From the NCBI GenBank assembly GCA_041651115.1, contig JBAZJY010000001.1, forward strand, positions 69,165 to 133,164: DNA of 64,000 bases, written 5' to 3'. This DNA comes from Candidatus Omnitrophota bacterium. GTDB taxonomy: Bacteria > Omnitrophota > Gorgyraeia > Gygaellales > Profunditerraquicolaceae. Shown here piece after piece: positions 53,712 through 59,919 of this stretch (position 1 is its first letter; every line of letters starts with the position of its first letter). The notes beneath the pieces are model-generated. The model had not been told where the DNA came from, ran no database searches, and saw only the letters and a list, made by a program, of their open reading frames with translations. Both the position numbers and the translations under genes were made by a program.

Positions 53712-54620
53712 ATGCAAGAATATACGCTTACCGTATCTGAACAGGATGTCGGCAGCCGCCTGGACATATTTTTATTTGAATTTTCCAAGCGCGACAATAT
53801 CGGCCTGTCCCGCACTTTTATCCAGAAACTGATTGAAAACGGCAATGTCAGCGTTAACGGCGTAGTTGTAAACAAGGCCAAGCATAAAATGAAACTCGCC
53901 GAAGCGGTCCGGGTTTCCTTTGAAGAGCATAAGCAGTCTTCGGCGGCAGCAGAAGACATTCCCCTGGAAATTATTTATGAAGACGATGACCTCGCGGTAA
54001 TAAATAAACCTATCGGGTTAGTTACTCATCCTGCGCCCGGAAATTACGAGCACACGCTGGTCAATGCGCTATTACACCACATCAAGAAACTTTCCGATAT
54101 TAATCCTGAAAGGCCGGGCATAGTTCATCGTTTGGATAAAGATACTTCCGGGCTGCTTGTCATCGCCAAAAATAATGCCAGCCATTTGAATCTCGCCCAG
54201 CAATTTGCCAAGCATGCAATCAAACGCCAGTATGCCGCCGTTGTTTTCGGAAAAATGGAATTTGACGAGAATATTATTGAGATCCCTATCGGAAGGCATC
54301 CGTACAAGCGTAAAAGTATGTCCGTAGGCTTTGGTAAGAGCACAAAATACGCCAAGACCTTATATCGCACAATAAAGCGCGGCAAAGAATTCACGCTGGT
54401 TGAGCTGGAACCGTTTACCGGAAGGACGCATCAGTTAAGGGTGCACCTGGCGTTTATCGGCCATCCGATCATCGGAGATATCAAATACGGCAAGCATACG
54501 GTTTTTAAGCGGCTTGCCCTGCACGCGAAATTACTCGGCTTTACCCATCCCCGCACCGGGAAATATCTGGAATTTTCCTGCCCCGTGCCGAAAGAATTCG
54601 GGGAGATAGTAGGAAAATAA
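53712..54620 (+). CDS. rluD: 23S rRNA pseudouridine synthase, RluA/RluD family
   Basis: An S4-like N-terminus and the catalytic motif HRLDKDTSGLLVIAKN. Confidence 0.85.
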   Translation: MQEYTLTVSEQDVGSRLDIFLFEFSKRDNIGLSRTFIQKLIENGNVSVNGVVVNKAKHKMKLAEAVRVSFEEHKQSSAAAEDIPLEIIYEDDDLAVINKPIGLVTHPAPGNYEHTLVNALLHHIKKLSDINPERPGIVHRLDKDTSGLLVIAKNNASHLNLAQQFAKHAIKRQYAAVVFGKMEFDENIIEIPIGRHPYKRKSMSVGFGKSTKYAKTLYRTIKRGKEFTLVELEPFTGRTHQLRVHLAFIGHPIIGDIKYGKHTVFKRLALHAKLLGFTHPRTGKYLEFSCPVPKEFGEIVGK

Positions 54621-54715
54621 ACCTTGAAAATCGGTAATTTTATGGTATATTTTAAGTAGATTTTTAGGAAAGCGTTTTCGCAGGAGGCGCGAAAGCGCGA
54701 TATACGGTTTGAATA

Positions 54716-54770
54716 AACCGGAATGCCACGGAAAAAGAAAGAGGGTTGGCTTCCGGATTTTTTATTTTTT
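54716..54770 (+). terminator. Candidate rho-independent terminator after rluD
   Basis: An imperfect stem (ACCGGAATGCC ... GGCTTCCGGAT) is followed by TTTTTTATTTTTT. Confidence 0.35.
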
Positions 54771-54812
54771 GATATTTAAAACTTTGATAAACAATTGAAG
54801 AAAGGGATAGCG

Positions 54813-57800
54813 ATGTTAAATAAAATAATATCCTTAGTCTTAAGCTTCGGCTTGCTCTTTCAGCAAATAAGCTTTGCGCAAATCGCCACAGAGTTAAACC
54901 TTTCAAATTACCTCTCTAAGATCAGCAGCAATATAATTCAGGAAAAATTCCGGCCTTTACACCTACGTTATTTCTCTTATGACAGCTTAAATGATAATTT
55001 TAAAATACTTCTTGATAAGGGTAGCGTAAAACAGCTGGATGATGTCAAGGCGCAGGAATCAGCTAAAACGCTATTAAGCTACTTTTTAATAGGGGTAACT
55101 CTTCCTGATGAAGCATTCTGGGTTAACTTAAGGCCTGACACAGAAGACCAGATCATAGACCCGTCTTTGGAGAAAACTGATGTCGGTAAGATTATGCTGG
55201 AAGCAGATCTCCAGCTTAAGAAAGACACTGCGCTTTTTACTTCTCCCAAGACTCCCGAAGGAAAAGAATACTGGAATAAGCTCTATAAGAAAGCGGGAGA
55301 GCTTTGCGGTAATGATAATGTTACCATTCCTACCTTAACCCGGCCCTGGATAGTCCCCGGGGAAATAATTGTCAGGGAAGCGAAAGATTCAGCTTATGTC
55401 TATAAAGCTACATTAAAGGTAATGTTAGAACAGGATTATCTTAAAGATTCCGCTACCTATAGCTTTAAAGATGAACGCTCTAAAGCGTTAAATGAATATT
55501 CTTCGCAGCTAATCCGAGAACTAATTATTCCTAAACTTACCAAAGAAGTAAATTCAAGCAAGAGGTATGCAGCCTTGCGTCAAGTTTACTATTCATTAAT
55601 TCTCTCCCGATGGTTTAAGCTGCGTTTTAGCGGCAAAACCGGCACCTACGCTTCATTGATCAATACTAAAAACCTTACCAACTTAGTTTCTCAAGAGGCT
55701 TGGTCAAAAACCGAATATTTTAAGCAATATAAAAAATCCTTTGCCGAGGGTGAATACAGCATCCAGGAGCCCGTTTATACCCCTACAGGGCAAGTTATCA
55801 GAAGCTACTTTAGCGGCGGCATAAATGTAGCCAGCAGCGCTATTAATACGCAGAATGGTGCTATCTTTTTAAATGATAATGCAAATAAACTGGGCGATGT
55901 CATTGGGGGTAGGGCGGTCCTTGATTTAAAAAGTATAAATCTAAAACCGATTGCCGTAAGCTCACCGATAACTAACCCAGACAAAGTTACAATCGAGTTC
56001 CCTATTGAGGAATGGTCTGCTTACGAAGATCAGTACGGACTTGGCTCTGGTCCAACTATTATTAACGCAGTGCCCTATGCTCTTTTAGAAGAAGTTAAAC
56101 GGAAATTCGGTAAGCAGGTTATTATTGATATATCAATATTTGATCATGAAAGTTCTACGGATGATTACGGAGGTTGGAAGGGATCATATAAAACAAAAAC
56201 AACATTGATTTTCTCCCAGGATATTGCCGATAAAATTAAAGAAGTAGTCAGAAAATATTATCCGAACGAATCTTTTAGTATTAGTTTACCTTTTCATTTA
56301 GATGAGGCTGCCATTTTAAGCTTTAAAACAACAGTCCTCAGTTTAGTAAAAAACAACCAACGAACATCGTTAGACAGCTTAATTGATTCTCTACCTCAAG
56401 GCTCCGCCGTAAGGAATGCTTTATTTAATTTAAAGCACCTCCATGGTAAGCCGACCGATGAAGCTGTTCAGCGAATAATTAAGGAAAATAATCTTAACGA
56501 CGCCGAACAGGCAGCTATTGTTCAGGTGCCTATTGTTTTACTAGCGCAGCCGGAAGTCACAATTGAATTACCTATCGATGAATGGTCTGGTAGTGAGGAT
56601 ATGTACGGGCTTGGTTATTCAACTCAGACGAACCCGATACCAAGAGGTTTTCTGGAGGAAATTAAAAGTAAATTTAGCAAGCAGGTTAGCATTGATCATG
56701 GAATATTTGATAGCGAAAATTCTGAAGATAATGTTGGGGGCTGGAAAGGTTCCTTTAAAACAAAAACAACATTGATTTTCTCCCAGGATATTGCCGATAA
56801 GGTTAAAGAAATATTCAGAAAATATTATCCTAACGAATCTTTTTTCGTTAGTTCGCCAATTAAAGATACTACAGAGGATAGCTCGCCGGTTTCTAAATTT
56901 GTAACTTTACCGGTAAACAAAGACGAGCAAGGTTTGGATTTTAGGGATGTTGAAAAAGCAATTGCGAGCGGAAGAATGGCGATTGCTGAAGTTTCGGTTG
57001 ATTGGGCAGAGAAAATAAAAAAGACTTTTCCTGATGAGGTTTATACTATTTTTATATCTCCTTTGAGCGAAGAACAAATTACAGAGCGTATGCGAAAGAA
57101 GGGTCAAGCGCGAGAGGCGGTTATTTTTGACGAGATGACAGGAAGACAGAGAGAGCGTGCCATAGAAAAACCAACGGATGAAAAGAAACAACTTGCACGC
57201 GCTCAAGCGTCAATTATAGAAATGTCTAGACAGAATGAATATGATATCGTTATTGTCAATAACGTATTAAAAGATTTAGAAAAAGATAATATTCGGTGGG
57301 CAGGTGAAGAGGGGGCTAAGGTAGTCTCGAAGTTTATGGGCGCTGTGGATAATGCCAGGAAGGATGGGAAAAAATTGATTCTGTATTCCGGCCCTTCTGC
57401 CACCGGGAAGAGCCCATTGTGGAACCAAATACAGCAGAGATATGGTGATCAATTTTCGCGTATTGTTCTTCATACAACACGCCCGATGCGAGACGGAGAA
57501 GAGAACGGAGTAGATTTTCATTTTTCTCCGGTTACAAAAGACCAAATTGAAAAAATCGGGATGGATTGGAATGACACTTCCAGTAAGCTTGTTAAAAATG
57601 GCTGGGCCCAGCAAGTAAGTCCAACAGAAGTAATTATGTTGACGAAAATAGAGAAAGAAAAAGATAAGGCGTTGGAAGCTTTTGGTGACAATCTCACGAA
57701 AATCTTACAGGCTCCTGTTGAGCAGTTAAAAGAGCTTGAGAAAAAAATTAATGCTTCTAGTCCTGTGTTAAACAGGGAGGATGATTTATATATTCCAACT

Positions 57801-58895
57801 TCTCAAGGTGAAGCCTATGATGCCGTAATGGCAACGTTAACTAAAATAAGAGGTACCCAGGAAAGTCACGGCTATCCGCTCTTTAAAACAAATATCGACA
57901 GAAATAAGGTGGAAGAGGCTTTTTCTGCTAAGAAAGCTACTCAAATAGGTTCGGTTCTTTACGGGTATGATACAGGTGATTATTCTACCGATTACGAAGT
58001 TACCGTTAATTTTAACGAGGCCAATATAACATTAACTTTTTTAAGCAGAGAAGAAAAATATAAATTAGAACGGCCTTTTAGCGAAGAGCGGGTAAGAGGA
58101 CAACTTTTTGCGATTCTTTGGAATATCGGTTGGGCCCACAAAAACATATCGTTTTCGGTTTCCGAAGAAATAGCGATTGATTCAGTAGAAAACCGCCATC
58201 TTCTTGCGGGGCCCGGTACGGATGATGAACATTACCAGGATGAGCCGGGCTATCAAGAACTGAGAGAAGCCTATGATGCAGTTATGGAAAAGATAAAATC
58301 TGCGACAGAAGCCAAGATCAATGAAATAATCAATTGGGTTAAGGAAAATCCGGAAATAAATTTCAAAATAGAAGAAGTTTATGTCCTTGGCGGAACCGGC
58401 CAGGAAGCAGGTATAGTCGGGCGCATTGACCGTGGTATTGCTGAAAAACTTGGACTTGCTTATGGAACGATCAATTTTTTAACGCAAGATATATCCAAGA
58501 AAACGGATAGAAAGAATAATAGCTCGCCGGTACGATCGATGTCCGGAAAAACAGGCGGTATTGATTTCCGTGCTTTACCGATGGCTATTCAGCCTATGGG
58601 GAGTTTTGGTAGTTTGAATTTTACGCTGCCTCAATTAAGCCAGGTGGAGCTTGAGAAAATAGATGTCGCTGCCGAGATACAACAGATCAAGAATATGGTG
58701 CAATCCGGGATTATCCCCTCCGGCGAACGAGTAAAATATCTTATTGCTGCTTGTGAACAAAAAGGGGAAATAAATTCTCAAGTGGACAACCTGTTGTTAT
58801 GCCTTACGGATATTTTTAAGCTGGAAGAAGAAAATGCTAGCGAGAGTTCTCCGGAATTAAGGGAAGCATTGGTAATTGTTGATATGCAGGCCTAA
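54813..58895 (+). CDS. Giant (about 1360 aa) secreted multi-domain repeat protein with guanylate-kinase-like P-loop segments; no confident family assignment
   Basis: The N-terminus looks like a signal peptide (MLNKIISLVLSFGLLFQQISFAQIA). Two roughly 105-aa internal repeats share stretches of identical DNA. GK-like motifs occur (GPSATGKS ... HTTRPMRDGEENGVDFHF; FISPLSEE ... YDIVIVNN). GC content is visibly lower than in neighbouring genes. ATG 54813 follows AAGGGA; the track ORF starts at TTG 54795. Confidence 0.75.
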   Translation: MLNKIISLVLSFGLLFQQISFAQIATELNLSNYLSKISSNIIQEKFRPLHLRYFSYDSLNDNFKILLDKGSVKQLDDVKAQESAKTLLSYFLIGVTLPDEAFWVNLRPDTEDQIIDPSLEKTDVGKIMLEADLQLKKDTALFTSPKTPEGKEYWNKLYKKAGELCGNDNVTIPTLTRPWIVPGEIIVREAKDSAYVYKATLKVMLEQDYLKDSATYSFKDERSKALNEYSSQLIRELIIPKLTKEVNSSKRYAALRQVYYSLILSRWFKLRFSGKTGTYASLINTKNLTNLVSQEAWSKTEYFKQYKKSFAEGEYSIQEPVYTPTGQVIRSYFSGGINVASSAINTQNGAIFLNDNANKLGDVIGGRAVLDLKSINLKPIAVSSPITNPDKVTIEFPIEEWSAYEDQYGLGSGPTIINAVPYALLEEVKRKFGKQVIIDISIFDHESSTDDYGGWKGSYKTKTTLIFSQDIADKIKEVVRKYYPNESFSISLPFHLDEAAILSFKTTVLSLVKNNQRTSLDSLIDSLPQGSAVRNALFNLKHLHGKPTDEAVQRIIKENNLNDAEQAAIVQVPIVLLAQPEVTIELPIDEWSGSEDMYGLGYSTQTNPIPRGFLEEIKSKFSKQVSIDHGIFDSENSEDNVGGWKGSFKTKTTLIFSQDIADKVKEIFRKYYPNESFFVSSPIKDTTEDSSPVSKFVTLPVNKDEQGLDFRDVEKAIASGRMAIAEVSVDWAEKIKKTFPDEVYTIFISPLSEEQITERMRKKGQAREAVIFDEMTGRQRERAIEKPTDEKKQLARAQASIIEMSRQNEYDIVIVNNVLKDLEKDNIRWAGEEGAKVVSKFMGAVDNARKDGKKLILYSGPSATGKSPLWNQIQQRYGDQFSRIVLHTTRPMRDGEENGVDFHFSPVTKDQIEKIGMDWNDTSSKLVKNGWAQQVSPTEVIMLTKIEKEKDKALEAFGDNLTKILQAPVEQLKELEKKINASSPVLNREDDLYIPTSQGEAYDAVMATLTKIRGTQESHGYPLFKTNIDRNKVEEAFSAKKATQIGSVLYGYDTGDYSTDYEVTVNFNEANITLTFLSREEKYKLERPFSEERVRGQLFAILWNIGWAHKNISFSVSEEIAIDSVENRHLLAGPGTDDEHYQDEPGYQELREAYDAVMEKIKSATEAKINEIINWVKENPEINFKIEEVYVLGGTGQEAGIVGRIDRGIAEKLGLAYGTINFLTQDISKKTDRKNNSSPVRSMSGKTGGIDFRALPMAIQPMGSFGSLNFTLPQLSQVELEKIDVAAEIQQIKNMVQSGIIPSGERVKYLIAACEQKGEINSQVDNLLLCLTDIFKLEEENASESSPELREALVIVDMQA

Positions 58896-58913
58896 AATAT
58901 TTTACTTTAAAAA

Positions 58914-58950
58914 GGGGACGTTTCCCGGTAGGGAAACGTCCCCTTTTTGT
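58914..58950 (+). terminator. Rho-independent, potentially bidirectional terminator after the giant gene
   Basis: A 13-bp perfect stem (GGGGACGTTTCCC-GGTA-GGGAAACGTCCCC) is flanked by AAAA upstream and TTTTTGTT downstream. Confidence 0.85.
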
Positions 58951-58970
58951 TGCACCATTTAAAATAACTC

Positions 58971-58998
58971 TTGATTTTTGGATAACCGATGTTATACT
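58971..58998 (+). promoter_or_regulatory. Candidate promoter (TTGATT-16-TATACT) for the coiled-coil gene and aroA
   Basis: Hexamers at 58971-58976 and 58993-58998. Confidence 0.4.
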
Positions 58999-59067
58999 AA
59001 CAACTTAAAGCATAACGAGTTGCGTTATAATCTTATCTATTCTTTTAAATGTAAAAGGAGGGCGGGA

Positions 59068-59919
59068 ATGAGTGAAAGGGCCAAAGTTCCTGTAGTATTG
59101 ATAATCGTGATCCTGGTCGCCGTACTTTCTTTAGGCGCGGCAGGAATGTTATTTTTATCTTTGCAGCAGGAAGTCATGAAAAGCACCGCCTTGCAGGAAG
59201 AGTTAAAGAGCACGAAAGAAATGCAAAAGATGCTCGAGAACAAGATGGAGGAAACAAAGAAAACCGTGCAAAACCTGGAGTCCAAGCTTAAAGATAACCT
59301 TTCACAAATTGAATCTTTATCCAGGGAATTACAGGCAGAGAGGTCGCAGAAGGAAGAGGCCTTAAGCCAGGTGAAAAATTTAAGGGCTGACTTGGAGCAG
59401 CAGCAGTCGCTGCGTTCCGACCTGGAAGGCAAGTTTATTAACGCGCAGGAACAGTTAAAAAATATGGACGCGCAATTAAGCGCTTTAGAAGGCAAGAAGG
59501 CCGAGCTGGAAGTAAAATTAAAGGAACTGGAAGAAAAGTCGCAGGGTGTTGAATTAGGCACGATAGTTGTCGCTCCGGAAACCCCGCCAGCCGCGGAAAA
59601 ACCAGCGCCGGCAAAAAAGGAACCGGCTAAAAAAGCCGCCAGGGCCGAGAAAAAGCAGAAAGCAGCGCCGGCGCCCGTATCCGGGATGGAAGGCAAGATC
59701 CTGGTAGTCAACAAGGATTATAATTTCGTAGTCATCAGCTTAGGCAGCAAAGACGGAATAAATATGGGCGATACATTCGCGCTTTACCACAACAATAAAT
59801 ATCTCGGGGACGCGAAAATCGAAAAGGTCCACGAGTCGATGTCCGCTGCCGGGCTTGTCAGCGAATCCTTGAAGAATAAAGTTGTTGAAGGCGATAAGGC
59901 CATCCGCAAAGAAAAATGA
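59068..59919 (+). CDS. Membrane-anchored coiled-coil protein with a Pro/Ala/Lys-rich linker and a conserved small C-terminal domain
   Basis: A TM helix (VVLIIVILVAVLSLGAAGMLFL), about 150 aa of heptad-like coiled coil, then a PAPAKKEPAKK linker and a C-terminal domain (GKILVVNKDYNFVVISLGSKDGINMGDTF). ATG 59068 follows a GGAGGG RBS. Confidence 0.6.
   Translation: MSERAKVPVVLIIVILVAVLSLGAAGMLFLSLQQEVMKSTALQEELKSTKEMQKMLENKMEETKKTVQNLESKLKDNLSQIESLSRELQAERSQKEEALSQVKNLRADLEQQQSLRSDLEGKFINAQEQLKNMDAQLSALEGKKAELEVKLKELEEKSQGVELGTIVVAPETPPAAEKPAPAKKEPAKKAARAEKKQKAAPAPVSGMEGKILVVNKDYNFVVISLGSKDGINMGDTFALYHNNKYLGDAKIEKVHESMSAAGLVSESLKNKVVEGDKAIRKEK

Follow-up and report, generated by a model that had tools for sequence, protein, structure and literature searches.

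The 64,000-nucleotide stretch of Omnitrophota DNA analysed here (the window; positions 69,165 to 133,164 of contig JBAZJY010000001.1) contains, at 54813-58895 on the forward strand, an open reading frame (ORF) that starts with ATG and encodes 1360 amino acids (aa). An earlier note on the same DNA had read it as a real gene of approximately this length, which is confirmed, and had taken its product for a giant secreted repeat protein of unknown family, a description that is partly revised below. The gene is the only one on a segment of approximately 4.35 kb, which is a recent, lineage-specific, horizontal insertion. Judging from its sequence, it belongs to an undescribed and very large family of presumably exported proteins, which was seen in one class of Omnitrophota. 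These proteins share an N-terminal and a C-terminal domain (N- and C-domain) with a variable set of modules (the cargo) in between, and the finding is more interesting at the level of the family than as a single gene.

The inserted segment and its surroundings

Upstream of the gene lie ileS, a dksA-like gene, lspA, lgt and rluD, and downstream follow a 313-aa coiled-coil ORF, aroA, mreB and mreC. The position between rluD and aroA that had been assigned to the gene is therefore correct on the rluD side, but not on the aroA side, where the coiled-coil ORF intervenes. With 39.8% GC, compared to 48.5% for the remainder of the window, the gene is the lowest-GC 4-kb stretch of the window (approximately 3.6 standard deviations under the mean), and it ranks 41st lowest among the 1245 ORFs of the genome (47.2 ± 3.2% GC; the genome as a whole measures 1.94 Mb in 11 contigs, at 46.8% GC). 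At third codon positions the difference is larger still (36.6% versus 53.3 ± 6.0% in the same 1245 ORFs), so that the AT-richness that had been noticed by eye holds, and the gene is compositionally foreign. The hairpin terminator directly behind the gene and the AT-rich region in front of it were likewise found as described, the latter being a 192-bp spacer that holds a promoter-like site (Table 1); an Rfam search of leader and terminator gave no credible match. An in-frame TTG is also present at 54795, but homologues start at the equivalent of the ATG at 54813 (pattern M-x-R/K-K-I-I-S-L-V-L).

To place the segment in its lineage, rluD was located in 30 related genomes, and the DNA downstream of it was compared in 19 of these (same genus, family and order). 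In 18 of the 19, the same genus included, rluD follows lspA/lgt and is separated from the coiled-coil gene by ~50-350 bp without a large gene; aroA, mreB and mreC come next. It had been suggested that relatives might have rluD directly adjacent to aroA without the gene: the gene is indeed absent in 18 of the 19, but the coiled-coil gene separates rluD and aroA. The locus of the same-genus relative aligns up to the end of rluD and again from the promoter of the coiled-coil gene, which delimits the foreign DNA to approximately 54610-58959. In a related strain, from a subsurface metagenome of another study, contigs join position 54598 directly to 58959 and 54609 to 58960, and this is a natural empty site. 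Conversely, contigs from a landfill metagenome (the probable source run) cross both junctions without mismatch (54422-56218 and 56771-59600), and both junctions consist of unique intergenic DNA, outside the conserved domains. The segment contains no mobility genes and no clear target-site repeats, only the single gene and a 7-nt repeat (AAAATAA) at its edges (54614-54620 and 58961-58967), which may be due to chance.

One relative of the same order (genome G020, L029:6086-14007) has a different island of 7.9 kb in the same spacer between rluD and the coiled-coil gene, with HepT/MNT and HEPN toxin-antitoxin-type genes, two ORF6N genes and one DUF1016 gene. Because of this second island at the same spot, the rluD spacer seems to be a recurrent landing site for accessory DNA.

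The nearest homologues of the gene (P0003, P0004, P0011 and P0018) have N-domains that are 78-83% identical to its own and kinase-type modules that are 55-76% identical; they are situated at unrelated loci, on contigs of 38.5-44% GC, with a GC content of 35.5-40% for the genes themselves. The four paralogues in the same genome, on the other hand, are only ~63% identical in the N-domain, compared to 82-83% for foreign proteins, and have 43.5-47.8% GC, so that low GC is not shared by the family at large, and the cargo modules of the gene have no paralogue in its own genome. The identity and GC content of the homologues, the lack of a cargo paralogue and the empty site together favour a donor in another Omnitrophota lineage, of lower GC content, over duplication within the genome. 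Horizontal acquisition, as had been supposed in the earlier note, is thus upheld by the absence of the gene at this locus in 18 of the 19 relatives, by the empty site and by a GC content like that of the contigs (38-42% GC) on which its nearest homologues are situated.

P0018 (L037:8001-13166), which has an N-domain of the same subfamily, likewise differs from its surroundings (35.5% GC versus 44.1% in the flanks), and the observations suggest that this subfamily moves repeatedly between genomes. Outside the window, two clusters of ORFs of 29-38% GC in the same genome (C1:542-556 kb and C1:270-279 kb) are probably larger foreign islands. The resident coiled-coil ORF (58978-59919, forward strand), of which the stop overlaps the start of aroA and the position is kept in all 19 relatives, has weak matches to the crescentin rod and to FlgT_C, and may be a cytoskeletal or envelope protein.

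Table 1. Features of the inserted segment and its borders, in coordinates of the window
Feature	Position	Strand	Basis or remark
Inserted segment of ~4.35 kb: own leader, one gene, terminator	54610..58959		Bridging contigs, synteny, same-genus alignment
Promoter-like site TTGAAA-16-TATATT with TG extension, left insert edge	54624..54651	+	Consensus match only
Coding sequence	54813..58895	+	1360 aa; GGGA Shine-Dalgarno-like sequence 7-10 nt upstream
Sec-type signal peptide, aa 1-22, predicted cleavage between SFA and Q	54813..54878	+	Pattern common to homologues
Family N-domain, aa 23-351; motifs FWVNLRP and RPWIVPGE	54879..55865	+	Homology; AlphaFold2 (AF2) pLDDT 82; fold relatives
Junction motif SSPI, aa 383-386	55959..55970	+	Motif scan
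Repeat copy 1, aa 395-493	55995..56291	+	67% identical to copy 2
Helical stretch, aa 494-584			Between repeat copies 1 and 2
Repeat copy 2, aa 585-683, with SSPI (aa 680-683) at its end	56565..56861	+	Repeat comparison, motif scan
Junction motif SSPV, aa 690-693	56880..56891	+	Homology to P0003/P0004 begins at aa 693
Circularly permuted guanylate-kinase-like module, aa 694-915	56892..57557	+	GK C-half 701-821, P-loop N-half 853-915
Junction motif SSPV, aa 982-985	57756..57767	+	Homology to P0008 begins at aa 993
Two cargo modules of unknown fold, aa 986-1076 and 1077-1236	57768..58520	+	Other combinations in other members
Junction motif SSPV, aa 1237-1240, just ahead of the C-domain	58521..58532	+	Motif scan
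Family C-domain, aa 1241-1360; GGIDFR..PMGSF peptide (GGIDFR 58554-58571), then five-helix bundle	58533..58892	+	
Intrinsic terminator: 19-bp perfect hairpin and U run	58908..58949	+	Free energy (dG) -33.4 kcal/mol, z -7.8
Promoter of the coiled-coil gene, TTGATT-16-TATACT; right border of resident DNA	58971..58998	+	Kept in same-genus relative

Conserved ends, variable cargo and a junction motif

The features by which the family is recognised are all present in the protein: a signal peptide followed by the N-domain, a C-terminal domain with the peptide GGIDFR, and a variable middle that is split by the motif SSP[VIL]. The N-terminus consists of a basic n-region, a hydrophobic core of 12 residues and a cleavage-type c-region (S-F-A followed by Q), a pattern that is kept across homologues. 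Beyond this putative signal peptide, no 19-aa window exceeds a Kyte-Doolittle (KD) value of 1.6 (i.e. there is no membrane-helix candidate), in agreement with the earlier reading of a signal peptide without a transmembrane anchor.

A word-indexed search returned more than 540 relatives, which match only the first ~350 and last ~125 aa, and all of those with a named source belong to Candidatus Omnitrophota or Omnitrophica. An exhaustive HMMER search with the N-domain returned 7457 cluster representatives (5576 at E<=1e-30), and in nearly all of the 150 matches listed the domain is N-terminal, in proteins of ~400-6400 aa. Situated at residues 1-350, it is 60-83% identical across hundreds of proteins, and the C-domain forms the end of 114 out of 119 collected homologues. 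Within the phylum, the N-domain was found in 26 of 201 sampled genomes, all 26 of one class and several with at least 10 matches. The protein is therefore not the orphan that it had been taken for, but has thousands of relatives in one uncharacterised Omnitrophota family; nor is 1360 aa, although large, giant by the standard of this phylum. The terminal domains have no match in the copies of Pfam and NCBIfam searched, and PF26216 and PF26217, which are listed for some homologues, fall outside both. A description of the family was not found in the literature searched (including Seymour et al. 2023 and a 2026 complete-genome preprint), and neither was a paper on DUF2330 or one that pairs SSPV with Omnitrophota.

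The cargo of the family includes PGK, GAPDH, phosphoglucomutase (PGM), glucose-6-phosphate isomerase (PGI), PEP synthase/PPDK, enolase, NUDIX and TAL, with DnaJ, TPR and HEAT among the further domains, and its length varies from near zero to ~5950 aa. Five members are encoded in the genome under study, this gene included; of the four paralogues, one carries transaldolase, PGM and GPI, one HATPase_c, and two have cargo without a Pfam match. Two members stand in tandem with overlapping ends (G000:C1:298011-311253; L010 and L011), the first with the transaldolase, PGM and GPI modules and the second with nine SSPx motifs and no Pfam match. Separate, stand-alone genes for gmk, PGI, TAL and PGM are also present in this genome. 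Because such housekeeping copies exist elsewhere, the enzymes carried by the family seem to be extras, which fits a separate location or role.

The modules of the protein itself recur in other orders in P0003-P0008 and P0021. The label of repeat protein proves overstated, the repetition being confined to one module of ~100 aa in two copies that are 67% identical. Atlas feature searches for this repeat module and for aa 986-1236 yielded nothing usable, and a profile of aa 986-1236 had no match to PDB sequences. Against Pfam and NCBIfam, the whole protein and its parts gave only the guanylate-kinase-like (GK-like) match, all other rows being under the cut-off. The earlier statement that no known family could be assigned does not hold for this part, which matches Pfam Guanylate_kin (PF00625) with 65.8 bits, above the cut-off of 25.2. 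The score for the equivalog model TIGR03263 (78.2 bits) is below its cut-off of 160.45, and the canonical order of the profile is not followed: aa 701-821 correspond to positions 82-173, and positions 2-61 come later, at aa 853-915. The module retains the P-loop (GPSATGKS), the TTRxxRxGE motif and the lid arginines, while several GMP-site positions seem to be replaced in a manual alignment to the canonical gmk encoded elsewhere in the genome, the roles of the aligned positions in GMP binding being those in the yeast enzyme. As the ATP site is kept and most GMP-site residues seem to be lost, the module probably binds or phosphorylates something other than GMP. It thus resembles guanylate kinases and the GK-like domains of MAGUK proteins in its P-loop, TTRxxRxGE motif, lid arginines and score over the Pfam cut-off, and differs from them in its circular permutation, its score under the equivalog cut-off and its seemingly replaced GMP-site positions. 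The cassette is present in only ten protein clusters, some of which add nucleoside diphosphate kinase, alanine dehydrogenase or HEAT repeats. One of its bearers, P0209 (from a metagenome, 1534 aa), starts with nucleoside diphosphate kinase and has the permuted cassette without the family N-domain, and the cassette is therefore not limited to the carrier family.

The motif SSP[VIL] occurs at aa 383, 680, 690, 982 and 1237, which are all the module borders of this protein, and the homology to other members breaks directly behind these sites. In the five family members of the genome it was counted 31 times (~3 per 1000 aa); three giant ORFs have it 55 times, and all other ORFs of the genome together (~570,000 aa) only ~20 times. 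The largest of these giants (G000:C4:95-43834, forward strand, outside the window) has ~14,580 aa, 37 SSP[VIL] motifs and ~16 hydrophobic segments; the other two, of ~12.0 and ~9.4 thousand aa, have 12 and 7 motifs. GGIDFR occurs once per member in this genome, always 8-10 residues past an SSPx, and the SSP[VIL] sites fall in low-confidence linkers of the N- and C-domain models. The codons for the serines differ (AGC versus TCN), so that selection on the motif acts at the protein level; a recombination site at the DNA level was set aside for the same reason. The exact motif is missing from 43 out of 120 family members, and ASSA, SSAV, AGSP and AASP are 17-27-fold over-represented in the wider family. 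West-Roberts et al. (bioRxiv 10.1101/2023.11.21.568195) described glycolytic-type domains in the giant proteins of Omnitrophota and proposed that these proteins are processed by proteolysis, at points that they noted to be unknown. SSP[VIL] is a candidate for such a processing site, with glycosylation or a simple hinge as equally possible readings.

Folds and predicted docking of the terminal domains

The models of the two terminal domains have a predicted local distance difference test (pLDDT) of 82 for the N-domain (AF2) and of 84 for the C-domain. The N-domain model resembles the predicted structure of a DUF2330 protein (Foldseek E 1e-22, template modelling (TM) score 0.64) and, in the ESM Atlas, an actinobacterial LPXTG cluster (TM 0.62) and planctomycete DUF1598 proteins (TM 0.51), i.e. 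extracytoplasmic proteins of unknown function in all three cases. It also matches distant members of the family with starch synthase, acetyltransferase or methyltransferase as cargo. The secretion proposed in the earlier note is thus plausible, given the predicted signal peptide and these extracytoplasmic fold relatives, and in a broad sense a surface or effector-like role is possible. The predicted fold that the N-domain has in common with DUF2330 (PF10092), DUF1598 (PF07643) and the LPXTG proteins is not accompanied by the architecture of cargo plus C-domain in these relatives, and the hidden Markov model (HMM) of PF10092 matches neither the protein (E<=1) nor the genome (E<=10). No solved structure related to the N-domain came out of Foldseek against the PDB or of a wide VIA-align search, of which the rows match the signal-peptide helix only, and for the C-domain Foldseek against the PDB and AFDB gave no known relative except family members.

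In its model, the C-domain starts with an extended, conserved peptide (GGIDFR..PMGSF..LNF), followed by a five-helix bundle. Because the two terminal domains nearly always co-occur, and because this conserved peptide has no structure of its own, docking of the one onto the other was tested. The complex of N- and C-domain was predicted with a median ipSAE (interaction prediction score from aligned errors) of 0.84 (runs at 0.81, 0.84 and 0.84), compared to 0.00 for the best of three controls; this mark is attained by 58 of 80 solved complexes and by 2 of 110 mismatched pairs, counts that are approximate because own alignments were used. The runs have at least 83% of their contacts in common, with a partner pLDDT of at least 77. 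In the predicted interface, GGIDFR lies against FWVNLRP and RPWIVPGE, which are the most conserved motifs of both domains, and conserved columns make up 32 of the 49 N-domain interface residues, compared to 100 of 279 (p 1.4e-4). A simple look at co-variation of the residue after GGIDF with the residues before FWVNLR revealed no clear pattern. Overall, the modelling supports a head-to-tail docking of N- and C-domain.

Proposed role, alternatives and comparison with known systems

Taken together, the account that seems slightly more likely than not is that the gene is an acquired member of a family of exported carriers, of which the ends dock and the middle displays variable enzyme modules. Sec would export the protein and the signal peptide would be cleaved, after which the GGIDFR peptide and helical bundle of the C-domain may dock where the surface of the N-domain is most conserved, which would either close the protein into a loop or join members of the family head to tail. 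In this way the two conserved ends would form a scaffold common to the family, by which variable enzyme modules are displayed or delivered beyond the cytoplasm, possibly on the cell surface or where the cell touches a host, with the SSP[VIL] sites as flexible joints or processing sites in common with the giant proteins of the same genome.

Several points weigh against this account. The docking comes from one predictor, and conserved residues are also to be expected in the core of any domain; no function can be transferred to the terminal domains, since no solved structure resembles either. The signal peptide was called by a heuristic, and the putative loss of the GMP site follows from an alignment made by hand, with residue roles as in the yeast enzyme. 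The most serious point is perhaps metabolic, because the cargo enzymes normally need cytoplasmic substrates (ATP, sugar phosphates), which fits poorly with the periplasm or the surface, unless their place of action is in or on a host. A host-dependent lifestyle has been proposed for the phylum (PMC10066038), and action of the cargo at or inside a host cell would fit with that.

The best-surviving alternative, which is unlikely but compatible with the carrier account, is that the protein is a polyprotein precursor, cut at SSP[VIL] by a protease encoded elsewhere, so that the exported modules would be freed while the N- and C-domains stay together. It would explain why the motif is present at each module boundary and 8-10 residues ahead of the GGIDFR of the C-domain, in linkers of low confidence, and why outside the family it is nearly limited to giant ORFs in this genome, cleavage of such giants having already been proposed (bioRxiv 10.1101/2023.11.21.568195). 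The protein has no protease domain in Pfam, however, and 43 of 120 family members lack the exact motif. Moreover, linkers rich in Ser, Ala and Pro can equally be O-glycosylation sites or plain hinges.

Less likely again is a membrane-tethered enzyme scaffold in the cytoplasm, in which the N-terminal stretch would be an uncleaved anchor and the modules would act inside the cell. In its favour, the cargo of the family consists of cytoplasmic-type enzymes that use ATP or sugar phosphates, and West-Roberts et al. (bioRxiv 10.1101/2023.11.21.568195) likewise doubted the extracellular prediction for the enzyme domains of giants. Nevertheless, the basic residues, the short core of 12 residues and the small-x-small end constitute the usual layout of a signal peptide, by which most of the protein would be outside; the N-domain has LPXTG-anchored or secreted proteins as fold relatives, and the housekeeping copies of the enzymes are kept separately.

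The candidate toxin of the earlier note (i.e. a toxin or antibacterial effector of the polymorphic-toxin type) has become very improbable. A predicted exported protein, encoded alone on a mobile insert, conserved in its N-terminal region and variable further on, and with some relatives in variable or defence-rich regions, could have been one, but no toxin family was found in Pfam or NCBIfam, the C-terminus is conserved instead of variable, the gene behind it is a resident that is syntenic in all relatives and not an immunity gene, and the cargo across the family is of a metabolic, housekeeping type. An assembly chimera, by which the gene of a lower-GC organism was misjoined into the contig, deserves hardly any credence despite the sharp GC shift and the highly conserved ends of the family that could mislead an assembler, since independent contigs cross both junctions without mismatch and these junctions are unique intergenic DNA.

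For the carrier account, the significance lies in the biology of the phylum. Omnitrophota are uncultured, mostly ultra-small and probably host-dependent, and their giant multi-enzyme proteins are unexplained. The carrier family is much larger and simpler and follows the same mosaic logic, with constant parts, variable parts and joints that can be read directly. Three elements did not turn up in the literature searched, namely conserved ends that are predicted to dock head to tail, a four-residue junction motif that is also present in giant ORFs, and evidence that whole carrier genes move between genomes. The family also raises the question of what additional copies of glycolytic and nucleotide enzymes would do beyond the cytoplasm of a bacterium that is putatively a parasite. 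As a more speculative extension, which is doubtful but worth stating, N- and C-domain might be a self-docking pair, a functional analogue of cohesin and dockerin, by which thousands of carriers close on themselves or join up non-covalently, head to tail, as 'giant proteins' on the cell surface of Omnitrophota that depend on a host, with SSP[VIL] as a processing or joint site in common with the covalent giants.

Of the known systems, the Archaeovorin-type and other giants of Omnitrophota (bioRxiv 10.1101/2023.11.21.568195) are closest: they belong to the same phylum, are mosaics of enzyme modules that include glycolytic-type and NUDIX domains, and are predicted to be largely extracytoplasmic, while the giant ORFs of the genome under study are punctuated by the same SSP[VIL]. 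The Archaeovorin-type proteins exceed 30 thousand aa, compared to 1.4 thousand aa here, and the present protein is without transmembrane helices. SecA-like, C39 and S8 domains were not found in it, the GK-like module being its only Pfam domain. The conserved N- and C-domains were not found in the giant ORFs of the same genome, and BLAST of the five family members against the giant ORF of 14.6 thousand aa gave no shared modules.

MARTX toxins have conserved ends around variable central modules, which are exchanged between strains at defined sites between the modules, and the carrier protein likewise has conserved ends, a variable middle and inter-module sites. RTX repeats or a cysteine protease domain were not found here (Pfam E<=1), and the carrier differs further in its cargo of metabolic enzymes and in its predicted Sec signal peptide instead of type I secretion. 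In cellulosomes, the conserved docking pair of cohesin and dockerin is found on many different enzyme modules. The terminal domains are not related to this pair in sequence or fold, both partners are situated on one polypeptide here, and their binding is predicted only; nonetheless, a conserved pair that is predicted to dock, combined with many enzyme modules, is what both have in common, and it would permit the formation of exported multi-enzyme assemblies.

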